Sequence record: MK562503
Strand: one strand, 5' to 3'
Source of the DNA: Shigella phage Buco
Length of the DNA stretch: 43,630 nucleotides
The notes under the pieces are model-generated. The model did not search any database. It was not told where the DNA came from and saw only the letters and a list, made by a program, of their open reading frames with translations. This document shows positions 2,892 to 21,332 of this stretch, in pieces. The translations under genes and the position numbers were made by a program. The first letter of the stretch is position 1. Each line of letters starts with the position of its first letter.

Positions 2892-3244
2892 CGCAAGACC
2901 TAACCCCGCTCACAGTATCGGAGGTAGCGGCGCTGTACTGGCGCATGCTTGAAACCGAGAGCAACGCTGGTTTAACCTGGGATAGCTACAGGAGAATTCC
3001 CGATGAACTCAAACCGCTCTGTCCTTGTGAGCGCCGACTTCGCCACGTTAGAAGAGAGGATGTTGTCTTGCTTGACACCCTCAGAACCTATTCTCCGGAG
3101 TGCGCAGCGCAGTCTCTGGCAAAGCTCCAGTTTCCCATCGTTGCAGAACTTACCACGAGAGGGTACGCCGGAGCATTCAAGGCTTTCAGCAGCGTTCTCA
3201 GACAGTACTACCGGGAGGCGTGCGCAATCCATTATTATGGATGA
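2879..3244 (+). CDS. Early hypothetical protein (121 aa)
   Basis: ORF-track entry; its translation looks more protein-like than the overlapping N-terminal extension of ORF 3003..4961. Confidence 0.55.
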   Translation: MPSLTQDLTPLTVSEVAALYWRMLETESNAGLTWDSYRRIPDELKPLCPCERRLRHVRREDVVLLDTLRTYSPECAAQSLAKLQFPIVAELTTRGYAGAFKAFSSVLRQYYREACAIHYYG

Positions 3245-9727: not shown

Positions 9728-10161
9728 TGGAAGATTGCATTGACCACGGCCAATTGGGCGGGGTTGGCGGGTACGGAAGAGTGCGCATGGGTGGCCGGGT
9801 TACTGGTGCCCACCGCAGAGCTTATTGTGAGGCTAACGGTGTTTCGTTGGACGATATAAAGGGGAAGGTTGTGCGCCACCTTTGCGACAACCCACGGTGC
9901 ATTAATGCGGAGCATCTCGCCTTAGGCACCGCAAGCGACAACATGCAAGACCGCAACCGCGGAGTTAATAATCTGCTTGGAGAAAGGAACCCATCAGCCA
10001 AGTTAACAGCCTCGGATGTTGTGGCGATTAGGGCGGCATATAAATCAGGAGAGACTCAAGTATCTATAGCGCGCCGCCTGGGTTTACGTCAGGGCTACAT
10101 CTCAAAAATTATAACGGGGAGAATCTGGAATGAGCAGCAGCATTCTAATCACAGATTATGA
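9727..10161 (+). CDS. Free-standing HNH homing endonuclease with C-terminal helix-turn-helix
   Basis: HNH signature RHLCDNPRCINAEHLALGTASDNMQD, then a DNA-binding-like helical region (SAKLTASDVVAIRAAYKSGETQVSIARRLG). Confidence 0.75.
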   Translation: MEDCIDHGQLGGVGGYGRVRMGGRVTGAHRRAYCEANGVSLDDIKGKVVRHLCDNPRCINAEHLALGTASDNMQDRNRGVNNLLGERNPSAKLTASDVVAIRAAYKSGETQVSIARRLGLRQGYISKIITGRIWNEQQHSNHRL

Positions 10162-12505
10162 AACAGAAAATCATCCATACTATGGAGGGGTAGCTTCCCC
10201 ATACTGTCCTGACAATTACATCGTAGAATCCGCTTGGCGTATTGACCGCACAAATGATGATGGTACGGTCAACGTCGGGGACGTTGGGAGCGTTCGCTAC
10301 AATAGTCGTGAACAGTTCCTCGCTGCACCACCCTCTGAGTGGCTACCGATACCAAGCGATTGCTGGTTAATAGTGGCCCATAACGCGGCTTACGAAATCA
10401 GTTGGTTTTTATCCTTTGCCCGTAAAGAATTTGAGGACTTCTTAAAGAGGGGTGGGCGTGTCTTTGACACAATGCACGGAGAGTACATTGCCACGGACTT
10501 CCAGAGTATGTATCCGAGCTTGGATGAGACGGCTCCTAAGTATGGTGGTACGCACAAGGTAGACGGGGTAAAGATTCTGTGGGAACAGGGTGTGCTCACC
10601 TCGCAGATTGACCCGATGCTATTGCATGACTACCTGGTGAACGGGGATATCCCGAACACCGCGCTGTGCTTCTACGGCCAGTGTGCTATCTTTGCTGAGC
10701 GCGGGCAGATGCAAATGGTCTGGGAGCGTATGGACGCTGTGCTGGCCTGGGCCTACTGTGAGTTCTTCGGATTGTATGTGAACATGCCGGTAGCCCGGGC
10801 GAACCAGGCGGAGCAGGAGCAGCGCATTCAGGAGCTGAAAGAGGAGCTGGGTAAGTACCTGCCGGAACTGCCGGAGACGTTCGAGTTCAACTGGGGTAGT
10901 AACTTCCATATGTCAGCGCTGGTATACGGCGGACCTATCCGGTACAAGCGCAAGGTCCCGTATGACCCGCCGCAGTATGTAAAAGCCGACTATTATAAGC
11001 TCAATAACGGAGAGCTTATAGAGGTAGATGATTGGGACATAGAGGCGTTGGATACTCGGCTAGTGCAGGAGGGCCTGTACCGCGAGGTTTATAGGGCAGG
11101 TAAGAACAAGGGTCGGCCTAAAGTCTTCCGCGCCGACACCGAGGAGGAGAAGCTTAAGTGGGACGACGCTATCTACACCTTCCCGGGCATCGTCAAGATA
11201 GCAGAGTTGCCAGAGCACATCCGGGAGAAGTACAGCGACCGTGGCGAGTTCAGAGGGGCCCAGACACTACCCGACGGCAGTCCGATATACAGTACCAGCG
11301 GGGACGCCATGAACGGCCTGGCGGCCCAGGGGCACGCCTTCGCTAAGTTGGTGAACGAGCTGGCCGGGTTAGAGAAAGACACCGGCACCTACTACCTACG
11401 CACGGAGTACAACAAAGATGGCTCAGTCAAGAAAGTGTCCGGAATGCTCCAGTACGTTATCCCTCAGTCAGGAGACGGGAGCGGCATTATCCATCACAGA
11501 CTCAACACTTGCAGCACTGTCACTGGACGTCTCTCTGCTTCTAACCCAAATCTCCAGAACCTCCCACGAGACGGCACGAGTCGAGTTAAACAAATGTTTA
11601 CTAGCCGTTTCGGCGACGAGGGGCGGATTACAGAAGTCGACTACTCGGCTCTTGAAGTTGTTATGTCCTGTGTGCACACCGGGGACCTCAAGCTCCTAGG
11701 TCTGCTGCTGGATGGTACGGACATGCACTGTTACCGGTTAGCCTTTAAGGAGGGCAAGACCTATGATGAAGTGTACCACCTCTGTCACTCGGATGAGGTT
11801 CCGGTTGAGGTCCATAAACTTTGGAAAGCCATGCGTACCGAGATTAAACCTCCTAGCTTTGCTGCTCAGTACGGCGCTACGGCTAAAGGTATCGCATTCG
11901 CTACCGGATGTACCGTGGAGTATGCCCAGTCATTCCTTGATAATGAAGCCGCACTATTCCCTACCACCATTGGCTTTCGTGATGTAGTCCGGGAGGAAGT
12001 AGAGCGGACCGGGGCAGAGGGGCCAATGTACCGAGAACAGGGTGATGATGGGCAGTGGAGACTGTACCGCATCGGGCACTGGCGTAGCCCCGCCGGTACA
12101 CGCTACAGCTTCCGTCAGAAGCTGCAATGGAAAGCCCCGCCGGGAGGTGGCCGCAAGGTTCAGGTAATGGACTACAAGGGCACAGAGATTGCAAACTACT
12201 GGTGCCAGGGGGAGGCGTTCTTCCTGATGCTGGTGGCCGCCGGGCAGGTTATGCGGGCAATGGTGCAGCGCGACTGGTTCGATGGGCAGGTGTGTCTGAT
12301 TACGAACGTGCACGATGCGTTGTATCTGGACAGCGCCAATCCGGAGGTAGGCCGGGAAGCGAGCCTGTTGGTTAAGCAGTGTATGGAGGATGCGCCTAAA
12401 CGTATCCATGCCCTGTGGCCGGACTACGGCATCATTGGGCAGGTCCCGTTCCCGGCGGAAGCTGAGATGGGTTTGAGCATGTACAGTAAGGAGAAGATTC
12501 AATGA
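10130..12505 (+). CDS. Family A DNA polymerase with N-terminal 3'-5' exonuclease domain
   Basis: 791 aa; exo motif ILITDYETE, then DYSALEVV, RTEIKPPSFAAQYG and VHDALYLD polymerase motifs; ggggaga upstream. Confidence 0.9.
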   Translation: MSSSILITDYETENHPYYGGVASPYCPDNYIVESAWRIDRTNDDGTVNVGDVGSVRYNSREQFLAAPPSEWLPIPSDCWLIVAHNAAYEISWFLSFARKEFEDFLKRGGRVFDTMHGEYIATDFQSMYPSLDETAPKYGGTHKVDGVKILWEQGVLTSQIDPMLLHDYLVNGDIPNTALCFYGQCAIFAERGQMQMVWERMDAVLAWAYCEFFGLYVNMPVARANQAEQEQRIQELKEELGKYLPELPETFEFNWGSNFHMSALVYGGPIRYKRKVPYDPPQYVKADYYKLNNGELIEVDDWDIEALDTRLVQEGLYREVYRAGKNKGRPKVFRADTEEEKLKWDDAIYTFPGIVKIAELPEHIREKYSDRGEFRGAQTLPDGSPIYSTSGDAMNGLAAQGHAFAKLVNELAGLEKDTGTYYLRTEYNKDGSVKKVSGMLQYVIPQSGDGSGIIHHRLNTCSTVTGRLSASNPNLQNLPRDGTSRVKQMFTSRFGDEGRITEVDYSALEVVMSCVHTGDLKLLGLLLDGTDMHCYRLAFKEGKTYDEVYHLCHSDEVPVEVHKLWKAMRTEIKPPSFAAQYGATAKGIAFATGCTVEYAQSFLDNEAALFPTTIGFRDVVREEVERTGAEGPMYREQGDDGQWRLYRIGHWRSPAGTRYSFRQKLQWKAPPGGGRKVQVMDYKGTEIANYWCQGEAFFLMLVAAGQVMRAMVQRDWFDGQVCLITNVHDALYLDSANPEVGREASLLVKQCMEDAPKRIHALWPDYGIIGQVPFPAEAEMGLSMYSKEKIQ

Positions 12506-12714
12506 GCAATAAATCAAACGGTATTGGCCTGGCTAGTGTACTCGGCGTAGTGTTCGTGACCCTGAAACTGTGCGGGGTTATCAACTGGTCCTGGGTGTGG
12601 GTGCTTGCACCCTGGTGGCTCCCCCTGGTATTAGCTGTATCGCTCATGGCTAGCCTGGGCGCTGTATGGGCTGTACTGTACAGCATAAAACATCTAATGA
12701 GGAATACTAAGTGA
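12502..12714 (+). CDS. Small membrane protein (two predicted transmembrane helices)
   Basis: 70 aa, strongly hydrophobic (VFVTLKLCGVINWSWVWVLAPWWLPLVLAVSL...). Confidence 0.5.
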   Translation: MSNKSNGIGLASVLGVVFVTLKLCGVINWSWVWVLAPWWLPLVLAVSLMASLGAVWAVLYSIKHLMRNTK

Positions 12715-12917
12715 GCGAGATTAAAGTGGGTGACAAAGTTAAGATAATCCGGCACAAAGACTATCCTAATGAAATTTGGGACAAGGGTCACTTTGCTATC
12801 GGTAGCGTCCATACGGTTAAAGGCATAGACCTACACGACCACCTAGGAGTGTATCTCCGGGATGAAGAGGGGGATGATTATCTGATTCTCTGGGCAGAGA
12901 TTGAGAAGGTACAGTGA
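12711..12917 (+). CDS. Small hypothetical protein (68 aa)
   Basis: GTG start after gagga; sequence MSEIKVGDKVKIIRHKDYP... Confidence 0.5.
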   Translation: MSEIKVGDKVKIIRHKDYPNEIWDKGHFAIGSVHTVKGIDLHDHLGVYLRDEEGDDYLILWAEIEKVQ

Positions 12918-12977
12918 GTGTAGGTTTACCCCGGGCGGCACAGGGTGTTAGGGTATCACACAAAACGAGGTGGGTCA

Positions 12978-13073
12978 ATGAATTCTTTTAAAGTATTTGC
13001 ATTGCGTGTCCAAGTTTACATCCTGGCCGCAGTTTCTATCATTATCTTCATGGCACTGTTGACATACGCTTGA
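12978..13073 (+). CDS. Small hydrophobic peptide (31 aa, single transmembrane segment)
   Basis: ATG preceded by acgaggtg; MNSFKVFALRVQVYILAAVSIIIFMALLTYA; below the track cutoff. Confidence 0.35.
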   Translation: MNSFKVFALRVQVYILAAVSIIIFMALLTYA

Positions 13074-13095
13074 ATCTGTGAAACAGGCCCTAATA

Positions 13096-13115
13096 GAATT
13101 CCACGGTATAGTACG
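13096..13115 (+). promoter_or_regulatory. Phage-promoter-like motif P2 (ttcCACGGTATAGtacgac)
   Basis: Shares the CACGGTATAG core (13102..13111) with P1, P3 and P4; followed by aggaga at 13120..13125 and a TTG start at 13132. Confidence 0.5.
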
Positions 13116-13131
13116 ACACAGGAGAACTACC

Positions 13132-14118
13132 TTGGCAAAGACCAGTCTAATTAAGTTGTGGACCAAAGAGCAGCACCAGGCAATCCTGGGTCGCTATTTA
13201 AACAATGAACGGGCAGCAGAAGAGTACAACAGCACCTACGTTGTACACGGCTGCGGCAACCCGGTATCCAGGCAGCTGGTGCGCTACTGGCGCAGCATCT
13301 TCATCGACAATGGCGGCAGCAAAGCGAAGGCTAATCATGGCTTACAAGAAGCGCGCAAACTCATTCAGCCAAGTCCCACTGATGATATTGGAGCTACTCT
13401 GGTTCCTGATGTTTGTCATCGGATTCTCGTCGTTGGGGATTTGCATGCTCCTTATACCCACGCTGATGCTCTTGAGTTTCTAAAGTCCGTCCGGGATGAA
13501 TACTGCCCGGACATGGTTATTCAGGTGGGTGACGAAACGGACGGACACGCAATCAGCTTCCATGACTCCGACCCGAACCTGGACAGCGCCGGGGTGGAGC
13601 TGGAGAAGGCTAAGGTAATTCTGGAGGACGTGCATGCGCTCTTCCCGAATCTACTCGTGTGCGACTCAAATCACGGGAGTCTTGTGTATCGTCGCGCCAA
13701 GGCTCACGGTCTACCGGTACAATTCATCAAGAAGTACCGGGATATTCTGTTTCCTGAGCACGGGGCACCGTCATGGAGTTGGGCGGATGCGTGGGTGCTC
13801 AACACGCCTCTTGGTCCGGTACGCTTCCAGCACCAAGTGTCAGGCGACTTTATGCTTAATGCGTCGCATGAGCGGACCAGTCTGGTTCTTGGTCACGAGC
13901 ACGGGCGATTCGAGGTACAGTACGCCGCTTCCAGCACCGCGCTGTATTTTGGCGCTTACGCAGGGTGCCTTATTGACCGCAAATCGCTTGCATTCGCATA
14001 CGGTAAGTTAACCCGTAAGAAACCAATCCTGGGCGTGATGGTTATCACTGAGGGTTGTCCACAATTAATTCCCATGCTACTCGACGATTCCGGTAGGTGG
14101 GTTGGGAGGGCTAAGTAA
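13132..14118 (+). CDS. Calcineurin-like metallophosphoesterase (possible DNA repair exonuclease or phosphatase)
   Basis: Motifs GDLHAPY, GDETDGH, CDSNHGS, GHEHG. No in-frame ATG precedes the first motif, so the TTG at 13132 is taken as start (alternative GTG at 13078). Confidence 0.7.
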   Translation: MAKTSLIKLWTKEQHQAILGRYLNNERAAEEYNSTYVVHGCGNPVSRQLVRYWRSIFIDNGGSKAKANHGLQEARKLIQPSPTDDIGATLVPDVCHRILVVGDLHAPYTHADALEFLKSVRDEYCPDMVIQVGDETDGHAISFHDSDPNLDSAGVELEKAKVILEDVHALFPNLLVCDSNHGSLVYRRAKAHGLPVQFIKKYRDILFPEHGAPSWSWADAWVLNTPLGPVRFQHQVSGDFMLNASHERTSLVLGHEHGRFEVQYAASSTALYFGAYAGCLIDRKSLAFAYGKLTRKKPILGVMVITEGCPQLIPMLLDDSGRWVGRAK

Positions 14119-15543: not shown

Positions 15544-15903
15544 ATGACTGATAAACTACTGCATGCATACCTCCGGGTAGCCGAGGCTATTGGTAATTAT
15601 GTAGCCATGAACAGGGAGGTGGCCGGAGTAAAGGTGGCGCTATATGACCTGGCTGCTCTGTACGGCATTGACCTGGCTGCGTACGAGAAAGAAATCCTGG
15701 AGCGCAACGATATCCCGGGGCAGGCGGACAGCCTACGTGGTGACCCGCTGGTAGAGGTGCGTATGACCGGCACCCTGGCGCAGGGCCTGGCAGATATCGC
15801 CAGCTGTGTCTATGACCCGGAGACAGGTCTGCAAATGGCCGAAATTACCGGGCAAGTTCTGGGCACTGTATTAATTATTCAGGAGTATGAGAATGCGCTC
15901 TAA
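15544..15903 (+). CDS. Hypothetical all-helical protein (119 aa)
   Basis: ORF-track entry; aggag upstream; faint, unverified MazG-like helical pattern. Confidence 0.55.
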   Translation: MTDKLLHAYLRVAEAIGNYVAMNREVAGVKVALYDLAALYGIDLAAYEKEILERNDIPGQADSLRGDPLVEVRMTGTLAQGLADIASCVYDPETGLQMAEITGQVLGTVLIIQEYENAL

Positions 15904-16084
15904 ACTATCTATTCTTTTTGCTGCTCCAGCAGGGCTGCTTATGGCCACCGGTATTGTTCTACTGGGCCTGGGCGGCCTGATTGCTGGGCAAGGTTTCTTA
16001 CGCCCCACTCGTATCCTTTCAGAAGAATTCCGAGATGCCTTGGTCACAGCCAAGGCGCGCCTCCTGGCGAGTAGGCGCAAATGA
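15893..16084 (+). CDS. Small membrane protein (63 aa)
   Basis: ATG at 15893 after caggag; hydrophobic core LSILFAAPAGLLMATGIVLLGLGGLIAG. Confidence 0.45.
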   Translation: MRSKLSILFAAPAGLLMATGIVLLGLGGLIAGQGFLRPTRILSEEFRDALVTAKARLLASRRK

Positions 16085-17025
16085 TTATCCGGGGGCTGGA
16101 CCTAGCGAATCTGGGGGAACAGCTAGCCCCCGCCAACCCCGGTAAGGTATTGCTGCTGGACGGGGACTTCCTGGTGTACAAGGCAGCGGCAACTGTCAAG
16201 ACCCTGCCTACCGCTATCCGGCGCTTCTACCAGCTGGTGCTGGAGGAGATGTTTCTGGTTGGGGTGCAAGAGTGCTTCGTGTATCTGACTCCCACTGGGT
16301 GTGCTAAGTGCAACCGCTGGCATCTGCCGACGGTGAAGCCCTACCAGGGACAGCGGGCTAATCGCGTGGAGCTGCCCCTTAAGGGACCTCTGAAAACGCA
16401 CCTATTGAATAACCCGGACGAGTACAGCAGCCAGAATATTCAGGTAGTCGGGAGCATGTTCTATGAAGCTGATGACCTGATAGTAATGGACTCCTACGCT
16501 TTCAAGGAGCGCTGCATCGTTAGCTCCGGGGATAAGGACCTATGGTTAAGTCCCTGGGCCAGGATGAATGCGGAGACCGGAGAGGTCTGGGCACCGCTGG
16601 AGGACTCCTACGGCTGGATTGAGTGGGATGAGACCAAGGCTATGCCTGTGCGTGGGCACGGTCTGAAGTTCTTCTGGTGGCAAATGCTGGCTGGGGATGA
16701 GGCAGATAACATCAAAGGCATCCGTACGCTGCATGGGCGGCTCTGTGGCAAGGCTACGGCCTTCCAGGCTATCAACCCTATGGCTACAGCGGACGAGGCC
16801 GCAGAGCTCGTTATAGGAGCTTACGCAGCAATCAATCAAGACCCCTTAGCTGAGGCTGAGGCACTGTTTCTGAGACGGCATGAGCGGGACTCTGGTTATG
16901 AGTACATTATGTCGGTGCTGGCTAATCCTGCTTACAGGGACTGGCTCACCAGTCTCAGGGATTATCACACACAGCACATTCAGTATGTGCAGGAGCTTTC
17001 GCTTTATGGCATCGAAGAAACGTAG
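16081..17025 (+). CDS. 5'-3' exonuclease (FEN/T7 gene 6-like)
   Basis: N-terminal LLDGDFLVYKAA, acidic GDKDL, and GDEADNIKGI helix-hairpin-helix-like motif. Confidence 0.75.
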   Translation: MIIRGLDLANLGEQLAPANPGKVLLLDGDFLVYKAAATVKTLPTAIRRFYQLVLEEMFLVGVQECFVYLTPTGCAKCNRWHLPTVKPYQGQRANRVELPLKGPLKTHLLNNPDEYSSQNIQVVGSMFYEADDLIVMDSYAFKERCIVSSGDKDLWLSPWARMNAETGEVWAPLEDSYGWIEWDETKAMPVRGHGLKFFWWQMLAGDEADNIKGIRTLHGRLCGKATAFQAINPMATADEAAELVIGAYAAINQDPLAEAEALFLRRHERDSGYEYIMSVLANPAYRDWLTSLRDYHTQHIQYVQELSLYGIEET

Positions 17026-17212
17026 TGCAAAGGAGCTGCGGCTCCTGGCCCTGGAACTCTACTTTACGGAGAAGCATGATGAACTCGAATTGGTTATGTC
17101 TGAAATGGCTGAACGGTTCCCAAGAACACATCGAAGCACGGTTAAAGAGCTGGATTCTATCATTCACGAACAACATGACCTGGATTGCGTAGGGGAGATT
17201 AAACTATGCTGA
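17006..17212 (+). CDS. Hypothetical protein (68 aa)
   Basis: Internal ATG of ORF 16880..17212 preceded by aggagc; overlaps the end of the exonuclease gene. Confidence 0.4.
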   Translation: MASKKRSAKELRLLALELYFTEKHDELELVMSEMAERFPRTHRSTVKELDSIIHEQHDLDCVGEIKLC

Positions 17213-17457
17213 TTAAGCACGGCGACACCTATCGAGTAGATATTGTACGTCCTTACATAGCAAAACCTAATGCACCTGGAATCTCCTATGCAGGTGACTT
17301 TCCTTACTGGTGGCCGCACTCCTGGTCTGTAAACTATGGCGGATATGTACTCTTCTTTGCAGCCAAACCTACGCGTAAGCAAATTCGTAAGATGGTGAGA
17401 TGGGTGCGGGACAGTTTACCATATGATAAACATCCGGAGGATGCGCCGTGGCATTAA
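17206..17457 (+). CDS. Hypothetical protein (83 aa)
   Basis: ORF-track entry; ggggaga upstream. Confidence 0.5.
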   Translation: MLIKHGDTYRVDIVRPYIAKPNAPGISYAGDFPYWWPHSWSVNYGGYVLFFAAKPTRKQIRKMVRWVRDSLPYDKHPEDAPWH

Positions 17458-18826: not shown

Positions 18827-18835
18827 TGATATAAT
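18827..18835 (+). promoter_or_regulatory. Extended -10 element (TGaTATAAT) just upstream of the RNAP start
   Basis: Perfect TATAAT at 18830..18835 preceded by TG at 18827..18828; no good -35 hexamer. Confidence 0.25.
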
Positions 18836-18851
18836 GGGAGAATATGCGCCT

Positions 18852-21332
18852 ATGACTAGCGCCCCGCTGTTCACTTATCAGTTCCACGGCACTGACGTTA
18901 CAGAAGCACAGGTACAGCGCCAGGCTCAGCTGGAGCAGGACTACCGCACCCGCGGCCTTGACCGCTCCCGGAGACTGGTACGCGAAGCTATTGAGTCCGG
19001 CAGAGTATCGACGCTACCGGCGGCACAGCGTCTGATTGCTGCCGCTTATGATACGGTAGCGCTCCAGCTGGATCGTATCAAAGCAGAGAAGGCCCCGGGG
19101 GTCGGTGGCCGCTACCGCGCGCTGCTTCGACAGGTGCCGACCACGGTGCTTGCCGCGCTGTCCCTGACTAAGTGCATTGACCTCATGGCGTGTGGGAACG
19201 GGCACAGCACCAACAGCTCTGCGCAGTCGGTTATGTCCGCACTGGGCCGACTGGTGGAATCTGAGCTGCTGAGCATTCAGCTGAAGGCCGTGGCTCCGGC
19301 GTACATGAACAGGGTGCACGAGTATCTGAAAGAGCGCCACACTAAGAACTCGTCGCATATTCTCCAGACCTACCGGGCGTCAGCAGAGAACGTACACTTC
19401 AACCACGAGAACTGGAGCAATGCCCAGTGCATCTCCGTTGGCCGGTTGCTGATGCAGGCAGTATACAGCACTGGCATGTTCCAGTGGCGCAAGGGTTCTG
19501 ATGCTAGCCAGCTTACGTACCTGGAACCCTCTGAGGAGGTGCAGGGGGTGCTAACGGACCTGGTACAGAATGCAGACTCAGTGACATACAAGCCGCCGAT
19601 GCTGGTGCCGCCGCTGGCGCATGAGACAATCTTCTCTGGCGGGTACATTACGGACATTGACCGGCGCGGTACTTACAAGAACACCCAAATAACGCGCAGG
19701 CAGCTCCGTGACGTGGCGAACAGCTTCAAGGAAGCCCAGGGTATTAAAGACGCTCTGAACCGCGCACAGAGCGTCCCATACCGTATAAACAAGGGTATGC
19801 TGGAACTGGTGCGAGAGGCTCAGCGCCTCGGGGTGGCTGTAGGTATGCCCAGCACTAACCCAGCACCGAAGCCGCAGTGGTATCTGGACGGGGTGCCAAA
19901 GGAGACCTACAGTGAGCGCCAGCTTGACGACTTCAATGAGTGGAAGCTCATGATGCGCGAGTGGTACAACGAGGACCGTACCCGTATCAGCCAGCTCCGC
20001 CAAGTGGCCCGTACCCTGCAAATGTCTGAGGAGTTTAAAGATGAGCCAGCCCTGTACTTCCCGACCTGTGTGGACTGGCGATATCGCGTCTACTTCAAAT
20101 CCTCCCTGCATCCCCAGGGTTCTGATTTGCAGAAAGCCCTGCTGTGTTTTGGGCGCGGAAAGGCCCTTGGCGCACGCGGGTTATTCTGGCTTAAGGTACA
20201 CGTCGCTACATGCTTTGGTTATGACAAAGCCTTATTCGAGCAGCGTGCAGCTTGGGCTGATGCAAACTATGCAATCATTGAACAGGTTGCAGATAACCCC
20301 TTTGATTCTGAGTCTTTTAAACTTGCCGATTCGCCGTGGTGTTTCCTTGCGGCATGTATCGACCTGGTTAATGCTACCCGCTCTGGCAGCCCGGAGCAGT
20401 ATGTATCGCACATCCCAGTCGCTATGGACGCTACAAACTCTGGTGGGCAGCACTTCTCCGGAATGCTCCGAGACCCGGTAGGCGGACGCTTAACGAACCT
20501 GTTCTGGGAAGGCAACGAGGAGAAGGCGGACCTGTACATGGACGTGAAGCAGCGTACAGACTCCAAGGTTATCATGGATTTAGCTAATCCAGACTTCGTG
20601 GTACAGGCGCACTACTGGATGGAGAATAGCATCACCCGTACCATGACCAAGCGCCCGAGCATGACCTACTTCTACAGCGCCACGGTGCGCTCCTGTAGCG
20701 ACTACATCGTTACCGGCGCTAAGGGGGAGGGCTATGAGGGCACGGAGGAATACAGTCTCTGGAAGCTGGCAGGTTATCTGGCCCCGCGTATGCGCAACGC
20801 TATCGAGGAGGCCAACCCGGCAGCGGCGGCAGCTATGCATTACTTGCAGCAGGTGGCCCGACGGGTCCCGGTGAAGCTGCATCTGCAATGGAAAACCCCG
20901 TTAGGTGGGCTCGTTATCAATCGTTATACCGAGTCTAAGGAGACCCGTGTCCGCATCGACAGCATGAACCTGACGTCTCTGCTGGCATACAACCGGGACT
21001 ACGAAATTAATAACAGGAAGAAGGCCGCTTCCGGCATCGCTCCGAACTTTGTGCATAGTCTGGATGGTACGCATCTTATGATGGTTATCACTGCATTTAG
21101 CGGCGATATCGTGCCTATTCACGACTCGTTGGCGACACATGCTTGTGACGTTGATGAGATGCACCGGGTAATCCGTGAGCAGTTCGTGAAGCTGTATACC
21201 GAGAACGACCCTCTGCAAACCGTAGCTGATGCAGCAGTAGCAGTAGGCGCTGACCTATCAGGTATCGAAATGCCGGAACATGGCAGACTGGACCTGCGGC
21301 AAGTGCTTGATTCGCCCTTCTTTTTCTGCTAA
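18852..21332 (+). CDS. Single-subunit DNA-dependent RNA polymerase (T7 RNAP-like)
   Basis: About 826 aa; catalytic motifs PVAMDATNSGGQHFSGMLRD and IHDSLATHA. Start taken at the ATG with gggagaa upstream; ORF opens at 18834. Confidence 0.9.
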   Translation: MTSAPLFTYQFHGTDVTEAQVQRQAQLEQDYRTRGLDRSRRLVREAIESGRVSTLPAAQRLIAAAYDTVALQLDRIKAEKAPGVGGRYRALLRQVPTTVLAALSLTKCIDLMACGNGHSTNSSAQSVMSALGRLVESELLSIQLKAVAPAYMNRVHEYLKERHTKNSSHILQTYRASAENVHFNHENWSNAQCISVGRLLMQAVYSTGMFQWRKGSDASQLTYLEPSEEVQGVLTDLVQNADSVTYKPPMLVPPLAHETIFSGGYITDIDRRGTYKNTQITRRQLRDVANSFKEAQGIKDALNRAQSVPYRINKGMLELVREAQRLGVAVGMPSTNPAPKPQWYLDGVPKETYSERQLDDFNEWKLMMREWYNEDRTRISQLRQVARTLQMSEEFKDEPALYFPTCVDWRYRVYFKSSLHPQGSDLQKALLCFGRGKALGARGLFWLKVHVATCFGYDKALFEQRAAWADANYAIIEQVADNPFDSESFKLADSPWCFLAACIDLVNATRSGSPEQYVSHIPVAMDATNSGGQHFSGMLRDPVGGRLTNLFWEGNEEKADLYMDVKQRTDSKVIMDLANPDFVVQAHYWMENSITRTMTKRPSMTYFYSATVRSCSDYIVTGAKGEGYEGTEEYSLWKLAGYLAPRMRNAIEEANPAAAAAMHYLQQVARRVPVKLHLQWKTPLGGLVINRYTESKETRVRIDSMNLTSLLAYNRDYEINNRKKAASGIAPNFVHSLDGTHLMMVITAFSGDIVPIHDSLATHACDVDEMHRVIREQFVKLYTENDPLQTVADAAVAVGADLSGIEMPEHGRLDLRQVLDSPFFFC

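Follow-up and report, generated by a model that had tools for sequence, protein, structure and literature searches.

Shigella phage Buco (sequence record MK562503) is a phiKMV/KP34-like podovirus, and its complete genome of 43,630 bp is the window analysed here. The original prediction, made from the sequence, picked out three small open reading frames (ORFs) scattered through the replication module and suggested that they encode membrane proteins of the superinfection-exclusion or host-inhibitory kind. They are referred to below as ORF A, ORF C and ORF D:

12502..12714, plus strand: ORF A (Buco gp20), 70 residues, predicted two-helix inner-membrane hairpin of family phrog_1374 (family match, homologues and AlphaFold2 model)
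12978..13073, plus strand: ORF C, 31 residues, single hydrophobic helix, unannotated and Buco-specific (ORF with a Shine-Dalgarno site in the sequence)
15893..16084, plus strand: ORF D (gp27), 63 residues, or 65 from an alternative ATG at 15887 (exact match to gp27)

All three ORFs were found where they had been placed, each with its ribosome-binding site (AAGGAG for ORF A, GAGGTG for ORF C and AGGAG for ORF D). Their reading as membrane proteins is borne out by 19-residue hydrophobic maxima of 2.17, 2.41 and 2.14, respectively, and by the two-helix hairpin obtained for ORF A with AlphaFold2. Their location in the replication module also stands, as the neighbouring genes encode DNA polymerase, a metallophosphoesterase, a DNA-binding protein and a 5'-3' exonuclease. 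The three ORFs are, however, not one kind of element: two are real conserved genes, and the third, an ORF confined to one lineage, lies in a regulatory spacer. In GenBank, ORF A is labelled gp20, the adjoining ORF B gp21 and ORF D gp27 (63 residues), and ORF C has no annotation. Both gp20 and gp27, already annotated as hypothetical proteins, are here placed in conserved phage families.

Conservation was assessed over 85 loci, comprising 80 viral loci centred on the phosphoesterase gene and five from annotated phage records. The closest annotated relative of Buco is Cronobacter phage Peggy (42% of the first 25 kb aligned at ~78% identity); the Klebsiella Drulisviruses come next. The C-terminal 250 residues of the Buco polymerase found polymerase matches in 81 of the 85 loci, and PF00476 is on record for the polymerase orthologues of two metagenomic loci of the Buco clade, L103 and L096.

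ORF A starts with an ATG placed 8 nt downstream of AAGGAG; this start overlaps the stop of the DNA polymerase gene (ATGA), and its own stop overlaps the GTG start of ORF B (GTGA). Its hydrophobic maximum, given above, is on the Kyte-Doolittle scale. The phrog_1374 profile is matched with an E value of 1.1e-19 (71 bits), residues 2-66 aligning to profile positions 10-74 of 89, and 193 relatives were found in the protein collection, including a 100% match to gp20 itself under the name 'putative membrane protein'. An alignment of 32 diverse members contains ten invariant columns (L14, F18, L21, K22, W29, W31, W33, V34, P37 and W39), all of which are carried by gp20 in the core L..F..LKLCGVINWSW.WV..P.W. 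Helix 2 is hydrophobic but variable in the same alignment. With the family alignment, AlphaFold2 gave helices at residues 10-23, 31-34 (in the turn) and 36-69 at a mean predicted local distance difference test score of 83.6. By hydropathy and by this model gp20 has the phrog_1374 plan, a two-helix membrane hairpin of 55-80 residues. The ratio of nonsynonymous to synonymous substitution rates (dN/dS) is 0.24-0.29 in comparisons with L103 and L096, in which synonymous sites are close to saturated. ORF A is a genuine gene of the large phage family phrog_1374.

Selection acts on helix 1 and the turn of ORF A and not on helix 2; therefore gp20 would work inside the membrane and not on DNA. Under the positive-inside rule both ends of the model would be cytoplasmic, and the tryptophan-rich turn WSWVWVLAPWW would lie at the outer face of the inner membrane. 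A reading of ORF A as a lipoprotein was rejected because the L-K-L-C context is no lipobox. Searches of the PDB by sequence and by fold gave no match, and NCBIfam and PADLOC scans returned nothing useful, with no PADLOC defence model matched by ORFs A, C or D. A tblastn search of the phage collection with ORF A also returned no match; the low-complexity filter accounts for this false negative, as clear homologues are carried by phages PSK2, Kpn13 and fHe-Kpn01.

Within phrog_1374, which includes fHe-Kpn01 Gp25 and PSK2_00022, ORF A shares the LKLCGVINWSW...P.W core, the size of 55-80 residues and the two-helix plan. The Drulisvirus subfamily differs in that its gene follows the phosphoesterase, lacks the polar N-terminus and reads LKLTGV(I/V)AWSW. 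Buco ORF A is of the canonical type and, unlike the Drulisvirus copies, follows the polymerase, as its homologues do in L103 and L096. The family was found in 34 of the 85 loci, and in all 33 other than Buco it lies directly 3' of the phosphoesterase gene. In L103 the homologue comes directly after the polymerase and upstream of ORF B; in L096 a nucleotidyltransferase gene is inserted between the polymerase and the homologue, and ORF B comes next. Of 60 syntenic relatives, 26 have no gene in the slot after the polymerase. This distribution marks ORF A as an accessory, mobile gene.

Several further observations were made at these slots. The L096 homologue, an intact ORF of 62 residues at 2923-3111, is uncalled in its source record because the call of the neighbouring ORF B was over-extended upstream in another frame. 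The post-polymerase slot (12505-12711 in Buco) is a hot spot for accessory genes across the loci numbered L001-L085, and its other occupants include HNH endonucleases, a nucleotidyltransferase of 180-182 residues, a Cys-rich protein of 85 residues (in Peggy) and genes of 92 and 119 residues. The L096 nucleotidyltransferase has a weak match to the Pfam family Gad2, and its fHe-Kpn01 counterpart is Gp22, which is toxic in E. coli. In L094, a contig of the Buco clade, an unrelated hydrophobic ORF of 45 residues (1731-1868) directly follows the phosphoesterase, which is the Drulisvirus slot of the ORF A family; the same places are therefore taken repeatedly by small membrane genes that are unrelated in sequence.

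Beyond these loci, a scan of IMG/VR with a degenerate form of LKLCGVINWSW found 40 contigs of 23-172 kb, and the core is kept both in phage contigs of this size range and in records from Pseudomonadota and Paenibacillus. In a metagenome-assembled genome from Pseudomonadota the homologue lies between an Enc34-type single-stranded DNA-binding protein (SSB) and a family A polymerase, and in a 70-kb phage contig between a PD-(D/E)XK nuclease and DNA polymerase III alpha. The 147 larger neighbours of 39 IMG/VR carriers are mostly DNA methylases, DUF1064, SSB, metallophosphatase, dUTPase, NrdD, ThyA, DHFR, PNKP and YqaJ, and include one lysin and three terminases, counts that are inflated by the near-identity of about a third of the loci. 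The family context is replication and nucleotide metabolism in many unrelated phages, not lysis cassettes.

ORF D has AGGAG 7 nt upstream of the ATG at 15893, overlaps the gene before it, and has a stop that overlaps the ATG of the exonuclease gene (ATGA). It contains one hydrophobic stretch followed by a basic C-terminal tail, and is predicted to form a single-pass N-terminal membrane anchor with a conserved basic amphipathic C-terminal helix (EEFxDAL..A..R). A word-index search returned only ORF D itself, and an exhaustive search found five full-length relatives of 66-67 residues at 38-52% identity. The relatives (L094-L099 and L103) occupy the same slot, after a gene of 124-128 residues and overlapping the start of the downstream gene. 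That gene is a 313-residue exonuclease wherever the contig reaches it (L094-L098 and L103); in the short contig L099 a 151-residue HNH-like gene lies downstream. Residues P14, A15, L25, G29, G34, G36, F37, R39, E47, D50, A51 and R58 are invariant in the family, and dN/dS is 0.35-0.56.

In nearly all Drulisvirus loci the exonuclease gene is preceded by small single-pass ORFs, one or two in number, of the types phrog_17815 and phrog_7652. These share with ORF D its size, its slot (between a 120-residue gene and the exonuclease gene) and its layout, in which a basic N-terminus and a P-A motif accompany a single membrane helix, and differ in lacking the longer conserved EEFxDAL tail of ORF D. Aligned with hhalign, the ORF D family and the phrog_17815-type family gave 94.4% probability (E 9e-8 over 58 columns). 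ORF D has no direct PHROG match, and none to phrog_17815 at E <= 1; direct hidden Markov model evidence is marginal, since a purpose-built phrog_17815-type model scores ORF D at 8.8 bits, a value exceeded by 1 of 1000 shuffles. Judged from these sequence comparisons, ORF D is a real but narrowly distributed gene and a distant relative of phrog_17815. With their homologues, conserved synteny and dN/dS below 1, ORFs A and D are clearly more than chance.

ORF C has a different setting, the spacer upstream of the phosphoesterase gene. The context features of the region are as follows:

10130..12505, plus strand: DNA polymerase (family A), from the ORF list, its stop overlapping the start of ORF A
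12711..12917, plus strand: ORF B (gp21), 68 residues, soluble and acidic, not a membrane protein (hydropathy maximum 0.41), GTGA-coupled to ORF A
12918..13131, no strand assigned: conserved non-coding spacer upstream of the phosphoesterase gene, from a six-phage alignment
~12927-12955 to 13063, within the spacer: G-rich box (~12927-12955) ending in GTTAGGGTA, then GGTCAA, an AT-rich tract and GTTGAC (13058-13063)
13070-13124, within the spacer: -35/-10-like pair TTGAAT (13070-13075) and TAGAAT (13094-13099) from a promoter scan, then AGGAG (13120-13124), followed by the TTG start
13132..14118, plus strand: metallophosphoesterase, TTG at 13132 preferred over the annotated GTG at 13078
16081..17025, plus strand: 5'-3' exonuclease, its Peggy orthologue annotated as exonuclease, ATGA overlap with ORF D

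ORF B is conserved in Peggy and L103 and has a 73-residue counterpart in nearly all Drulisvirus loci. GenBank gives the phosphoesterase (gp22) as a 346-residue form from the GTG at 13078. The Peggy protein is annotated from the aligned TTG, reading MAKISLIKLW, and relatives have indels of 1-2 nt upstream; therefore, in the stretch 13078-13134, the first 18 annotated gp22 codons are probably non-coding promoter or leader sequence. The true start is likely the TTG at 13132, behind AGGAG.

The spacer, with its fixed spacing, is common to Buco, Peggy and the Drulisviruses, and a TAnnnT hexamer follows GTTGAC after 29 nt. According to published work, in phiKMV-type phages the host RNA polymerase transcribes the region upstream of the phage RNA polymerase gene. 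In Buco this gene (18834-21332) lies downstream of the DNA-metabolism genes, which is the phiKMV/KP34 arrangement, and transcription of the replication region by the host enzyme is expected for this reason. The spacer probably serves the phosphoesterase operon as a promoter region for the host polymerase. A reading of it as a reiterated phage promoter was rejected, as its motifs are not repeated elsewhere in the Buco genome. Rfam found no family in the whole genome, and RNA folding of the spacer is no better than that of shuffles (z = +1.4).

In 39 loci TTAGGGTA lies 55-56 nt from GTTGAC; a distance of 110 nt is peculiar to Buco. ORF C fills this Buco-only expansion of 55 bp, and its ATG arises where GGTCAATGAA replaces GGTCAACTAA. 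Its frame reads through the conserved GTTGAC and stops within the -35-like TTGAAT. At the same position Peggy, L094, L096 and L103 have stops in all frames. The inserted 55 bp have no second copy in the Buco genome, and a tandem duplication as their source was rejected because the best internal alignment falls below the shuffle mean.

Conservation in relatives, which the original prediction gave as a check, was not found for the third ORF. ORF C is absent from all 84 related loci, the closest relatives included, and is neither in the GenBank annotation nor in the protein collection; a search of 5.8 billion proteins gave no homologue, and the only IMG/VR matches are Buco itself. In the 260 nt before the phosphoesterase gene, just one of these 84 loci, L077, has a hydrophobic mini-ORF, and its start is a TTG. 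For ORF C as a type I toxin-like locus with a cognate antisense RNA, neither conservation in relatives nor an Rfam match nor unusual RNA structure was found. Sequence rich in T and in A+T is expected to yield hydrophobic ORFs, and the minus strand of Buco, which is entirely non-coding (the long ORFs are on the plus strand in every case), has two comparable ones of 25-80 residues with Shine-Dalgarno sites. Within ORF C, in the Buco-specific insert, lies a sigma-70-like TTTACA-16-TATCAT (10/12 positions) at 13015-13042, with TATCAT at 13037-13042; matches of this kind are no more numerous here than shuffling leads one to expect. What the insert introduced may be a promoter and not a gene.

The competing explanation is that ORF C is a newly born, Buco-specific membrane peptide of 31 residues, translated from read-through transcripts of the polymerase operon. 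Several features weigh on this side, and against its dismissal. The ATG with GAGGTG at a spacing of 5 nt argues that it could be translated, and no terminator-like site lies upstream. Its codon score of 0.38 per codon is gene-like, against a mean of 0.39 for real gene windows of 31 codons. Moreover, when the 214-nt gap is randomised by a first-order Markov model, a hydrophobic ORF that spans 31 codons or more and has a Shine-Dalgarno site turns up in just 0.03% of trials. Set against these are the missing homologues and annotation, the absence from the closest relatives, the composition of the sequence and the promoter that the inserted DNA may carry instead. A newborn peptide is possible, though we doubt it; ORF C is probably not a functional gene, and it would be the product of a Buco-only 55-bp expansion in an AT-rich, promoter-bearing spacer.

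Taken together, the explanation that we favour, with somewhat less assurance, is that ORFs A and D are genuine accessory membrane genes and that ORF C is most likely non-functional. Their products gp20 and gp27 would be small cytoplasmic-membrane proteins, encoded by dispensable accessory genes and made together with the replication enzymes. The start and stop overlaps of both genes with their neighbours suggest that translation is probably coupled. gp20 might self-assemble in the membrane or bind a membrane partner; the near-invariant core across very different phages argues for self-assembly or for a general membrane target. Only tentatively can both proteins be given a role at the infected cell's envelope while replication is under way, where they would block entry of a second genome, or protect membrane integrity from premature lysis or from defences that act on the membrane. 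Literature searches on phage Buco, phrog_1374, Fragile-X-F proteins in phages and Drulisvirus transcriptomes found nothing on function.

In addition to the gene-like features of ORF C, three points weigh against this explanation. The topology is drawn from hydropathy, charge and an AlphaFold2 monomer alone; the neighbour counts are inflated, as noted; and known exclusion proteins are phage-specific and fast-evolving, unlike the extremely conserved core of ORF A.

Nothing in this analysis supports the view of the original prediction that small membrane proteins of T7-like phages often have exclusion or inhibitory roles. Among specific functions, superinfection exclusion comes first, although it too is rather unlikely. 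Here gp20, gp27 or both would block translocation of a second phage genome, for example by binding ejection-channel proteins in the way T4 Imm engages the tape-measure protein. The internal virion (ejection) proteins of Buco are encoded at 29411-35928. T4 Imm is an inner-membrane protein of 9.3 kDa which binds the channel-forming protein of the incoming phage and so blocks translocation of the genome; W50, a tryptophan in a loop, is important to its function (bioRxiv 10.64898/2026.03.06.709160). As is predicted for gp20 and gp27, T4 Imm and HK97 gp15 are small early phage inner-membrane proteins acting within the membrane. The Buco proteins are of this kind in being small, non-essential, patchily distributed and expressed with the middle genes, and the predicted outward-facing tryptophan-rich loop of ORF A would be comparable to that of Imm. 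The likeness stops there: four helices are described for Imm (bioRxiv 10.64898/2026.03.06.709160) as against two in gp20, and the two have no sequence relationship. No Pfam superinfection-immunity family is matched by ORFs A, C or D at E <= 1. A near-invariant core over diverse phages is also hard to square with the ejection proteins of any one phage.

A broader proposal is more speculative. The LKLCGVINWSW hairpin could be a pan-phage membrane module related to the repeat of eukaryotic TMEM185, binding a universally conserved component of the bacterial cytoplasmic membrane; for this reason it would be kept next to the polymerase and nucleotide-metabolism genes of phages whose replication systems are unrelated. 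The hairpin of ORF A resembles one repeat of the polytopic protein described by PF10269 (Tmemb_185A, the eukaryotic 'Transmembrane Fragile-X-F protein'). This family is matched by 19 of the 32 members (best E 6e-6), some of which carry a precomputed PF10269 assignment. gp20 itself scores 15.9 bits, below the cut-off of 23.1 bits, and its alignment is limited to positions 143-189 of a profile with 252; at 70 residues it amounts to one hairpin, unlike the multi-repeat protein. If the proposal were true, the family would be a general host-takeover or protection device and not a phage-specific exclusion factor.

Host inhibition or toxicity, the other function put forward in the original prediction, is improbable. 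The proteins would in this case act by damaging or depolarising the membrane, or by blocking an essential enzyme in it. Phage peptides that are small and hydrophobic can be toxic, cell growth suffered when T4 Imm was strongly induced (bioRxiv 10.64898/2026.03.06.709160), and the near-invariant helix 1 and turn of ORF A would suit a universally conserved membrane target. The one experiment found that bears on this concerns the Drulisvirus fHe-Kpn01, whose Gp25 is an ORF A homologue and whose Gp30 is a phrog_7652-type small membrane protein in the ORF D slot, adjoining the exonuclease. Both were screened for toxicity in E. coli by cloning and plating, a relative transformant count of 0.4 or below with a standard deviation of 0.15 or less being classed as toxic (PMC7291057). 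Gp25 gave 0.797 and 0.179 (mean 0.488, or 0.49 +/- 0.31) and Gp30 gave 0.824 and 1.237 (mean 1.03); neither was classed as toxic, while the screen did confirm toxicity for Gp10, Gp22 and Gp38 (PMC7291057). The Gp25 result is ambiguous; one of its two replicates was low. The assay host was E. coli, whereas fHe-Kpn01 infects Klebsiella. As neither protein was called toxic, strong host toxicity is not supported. The genes of ORFs A and D are, moreover, missing from many close relatives.

A lysis-timing component (a holin, antiholin or pinholin-like protein) encoded outside the lysis cassette is less probable still. In size and architecture ORF A is like the class II holins and pinholins, such as S21 of phage 21, which have ~70 residues and two membrane helices, and 6 of the 32 family members give weak matches to PF07332 (Phage_holin_3_6). 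Unlike these holins, ORF A lies outside the lysis cassette, and gp20 has no holin family match in Pfam. Buco has its own cassette 23-27 kb away:

39436-40686: lysis cassette of three genes (spanin-like, holin-like and lysozyme)

The spanin-like protein of this cassette, 135 residues long, carries a lipobox (LTGC) as well as a membrane helix at its C-terminus, and resembles a unimolecular spanin. Beside it are a holin-like membrane protein of 81 residues and a lysozyme (PF00959) whose N-terminus has a hydrophobic segment like that of signal-arrest-release proteins. Given this separate cassette and the single lysin among the 147 neighbours, the holin reading of ORF A was rejected on genomic context.

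Membrane tethering of the replication machinery, by analogy with phi29 p16.7, would explain the position beside the polymerase and exonuclease genes, and could draw on the recurrence of the ORF A family beside polymerase genes of two families in unrelated phages and on the conserved basic tail of ORF D (~27 residues), which could contact nucleic acid or protein, but it is hardly credible given soluble ends of only ~7 and ~10 residues in ORF A and the dispensability of both genes in many relatives with the same replication enzymes.

A further small gene was noted around the exonuclease. The motif AKPTRKQ(V/I) is common to a Buco protein of 83 residues (17206-17457) and a Drulisvirus protein of 65-67 residues. 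As the gene lies upstream of the exonuclease gene in Drulisvirus loci (for example L005, 6447-6644) and downstream in the Buco clade (L095, 2192-2371), it appears to have moved across the exonuclease gene between the two.

For the annotation of Buco, these results mean that the 31-codon ORF C should not be accepted without translation data. The most interesting feature to remain is the frozen LKLCGVINWSW hairpin, which recurs beside replication and nucleotide-metabolism genes in very different phages. For phage therapy, it is relevant whether such genes alter the susceptibility of the host to other phages. A single exclusion or membrane-physiology result on any member of phrog_1374 would annotate hundreds of phage genes.

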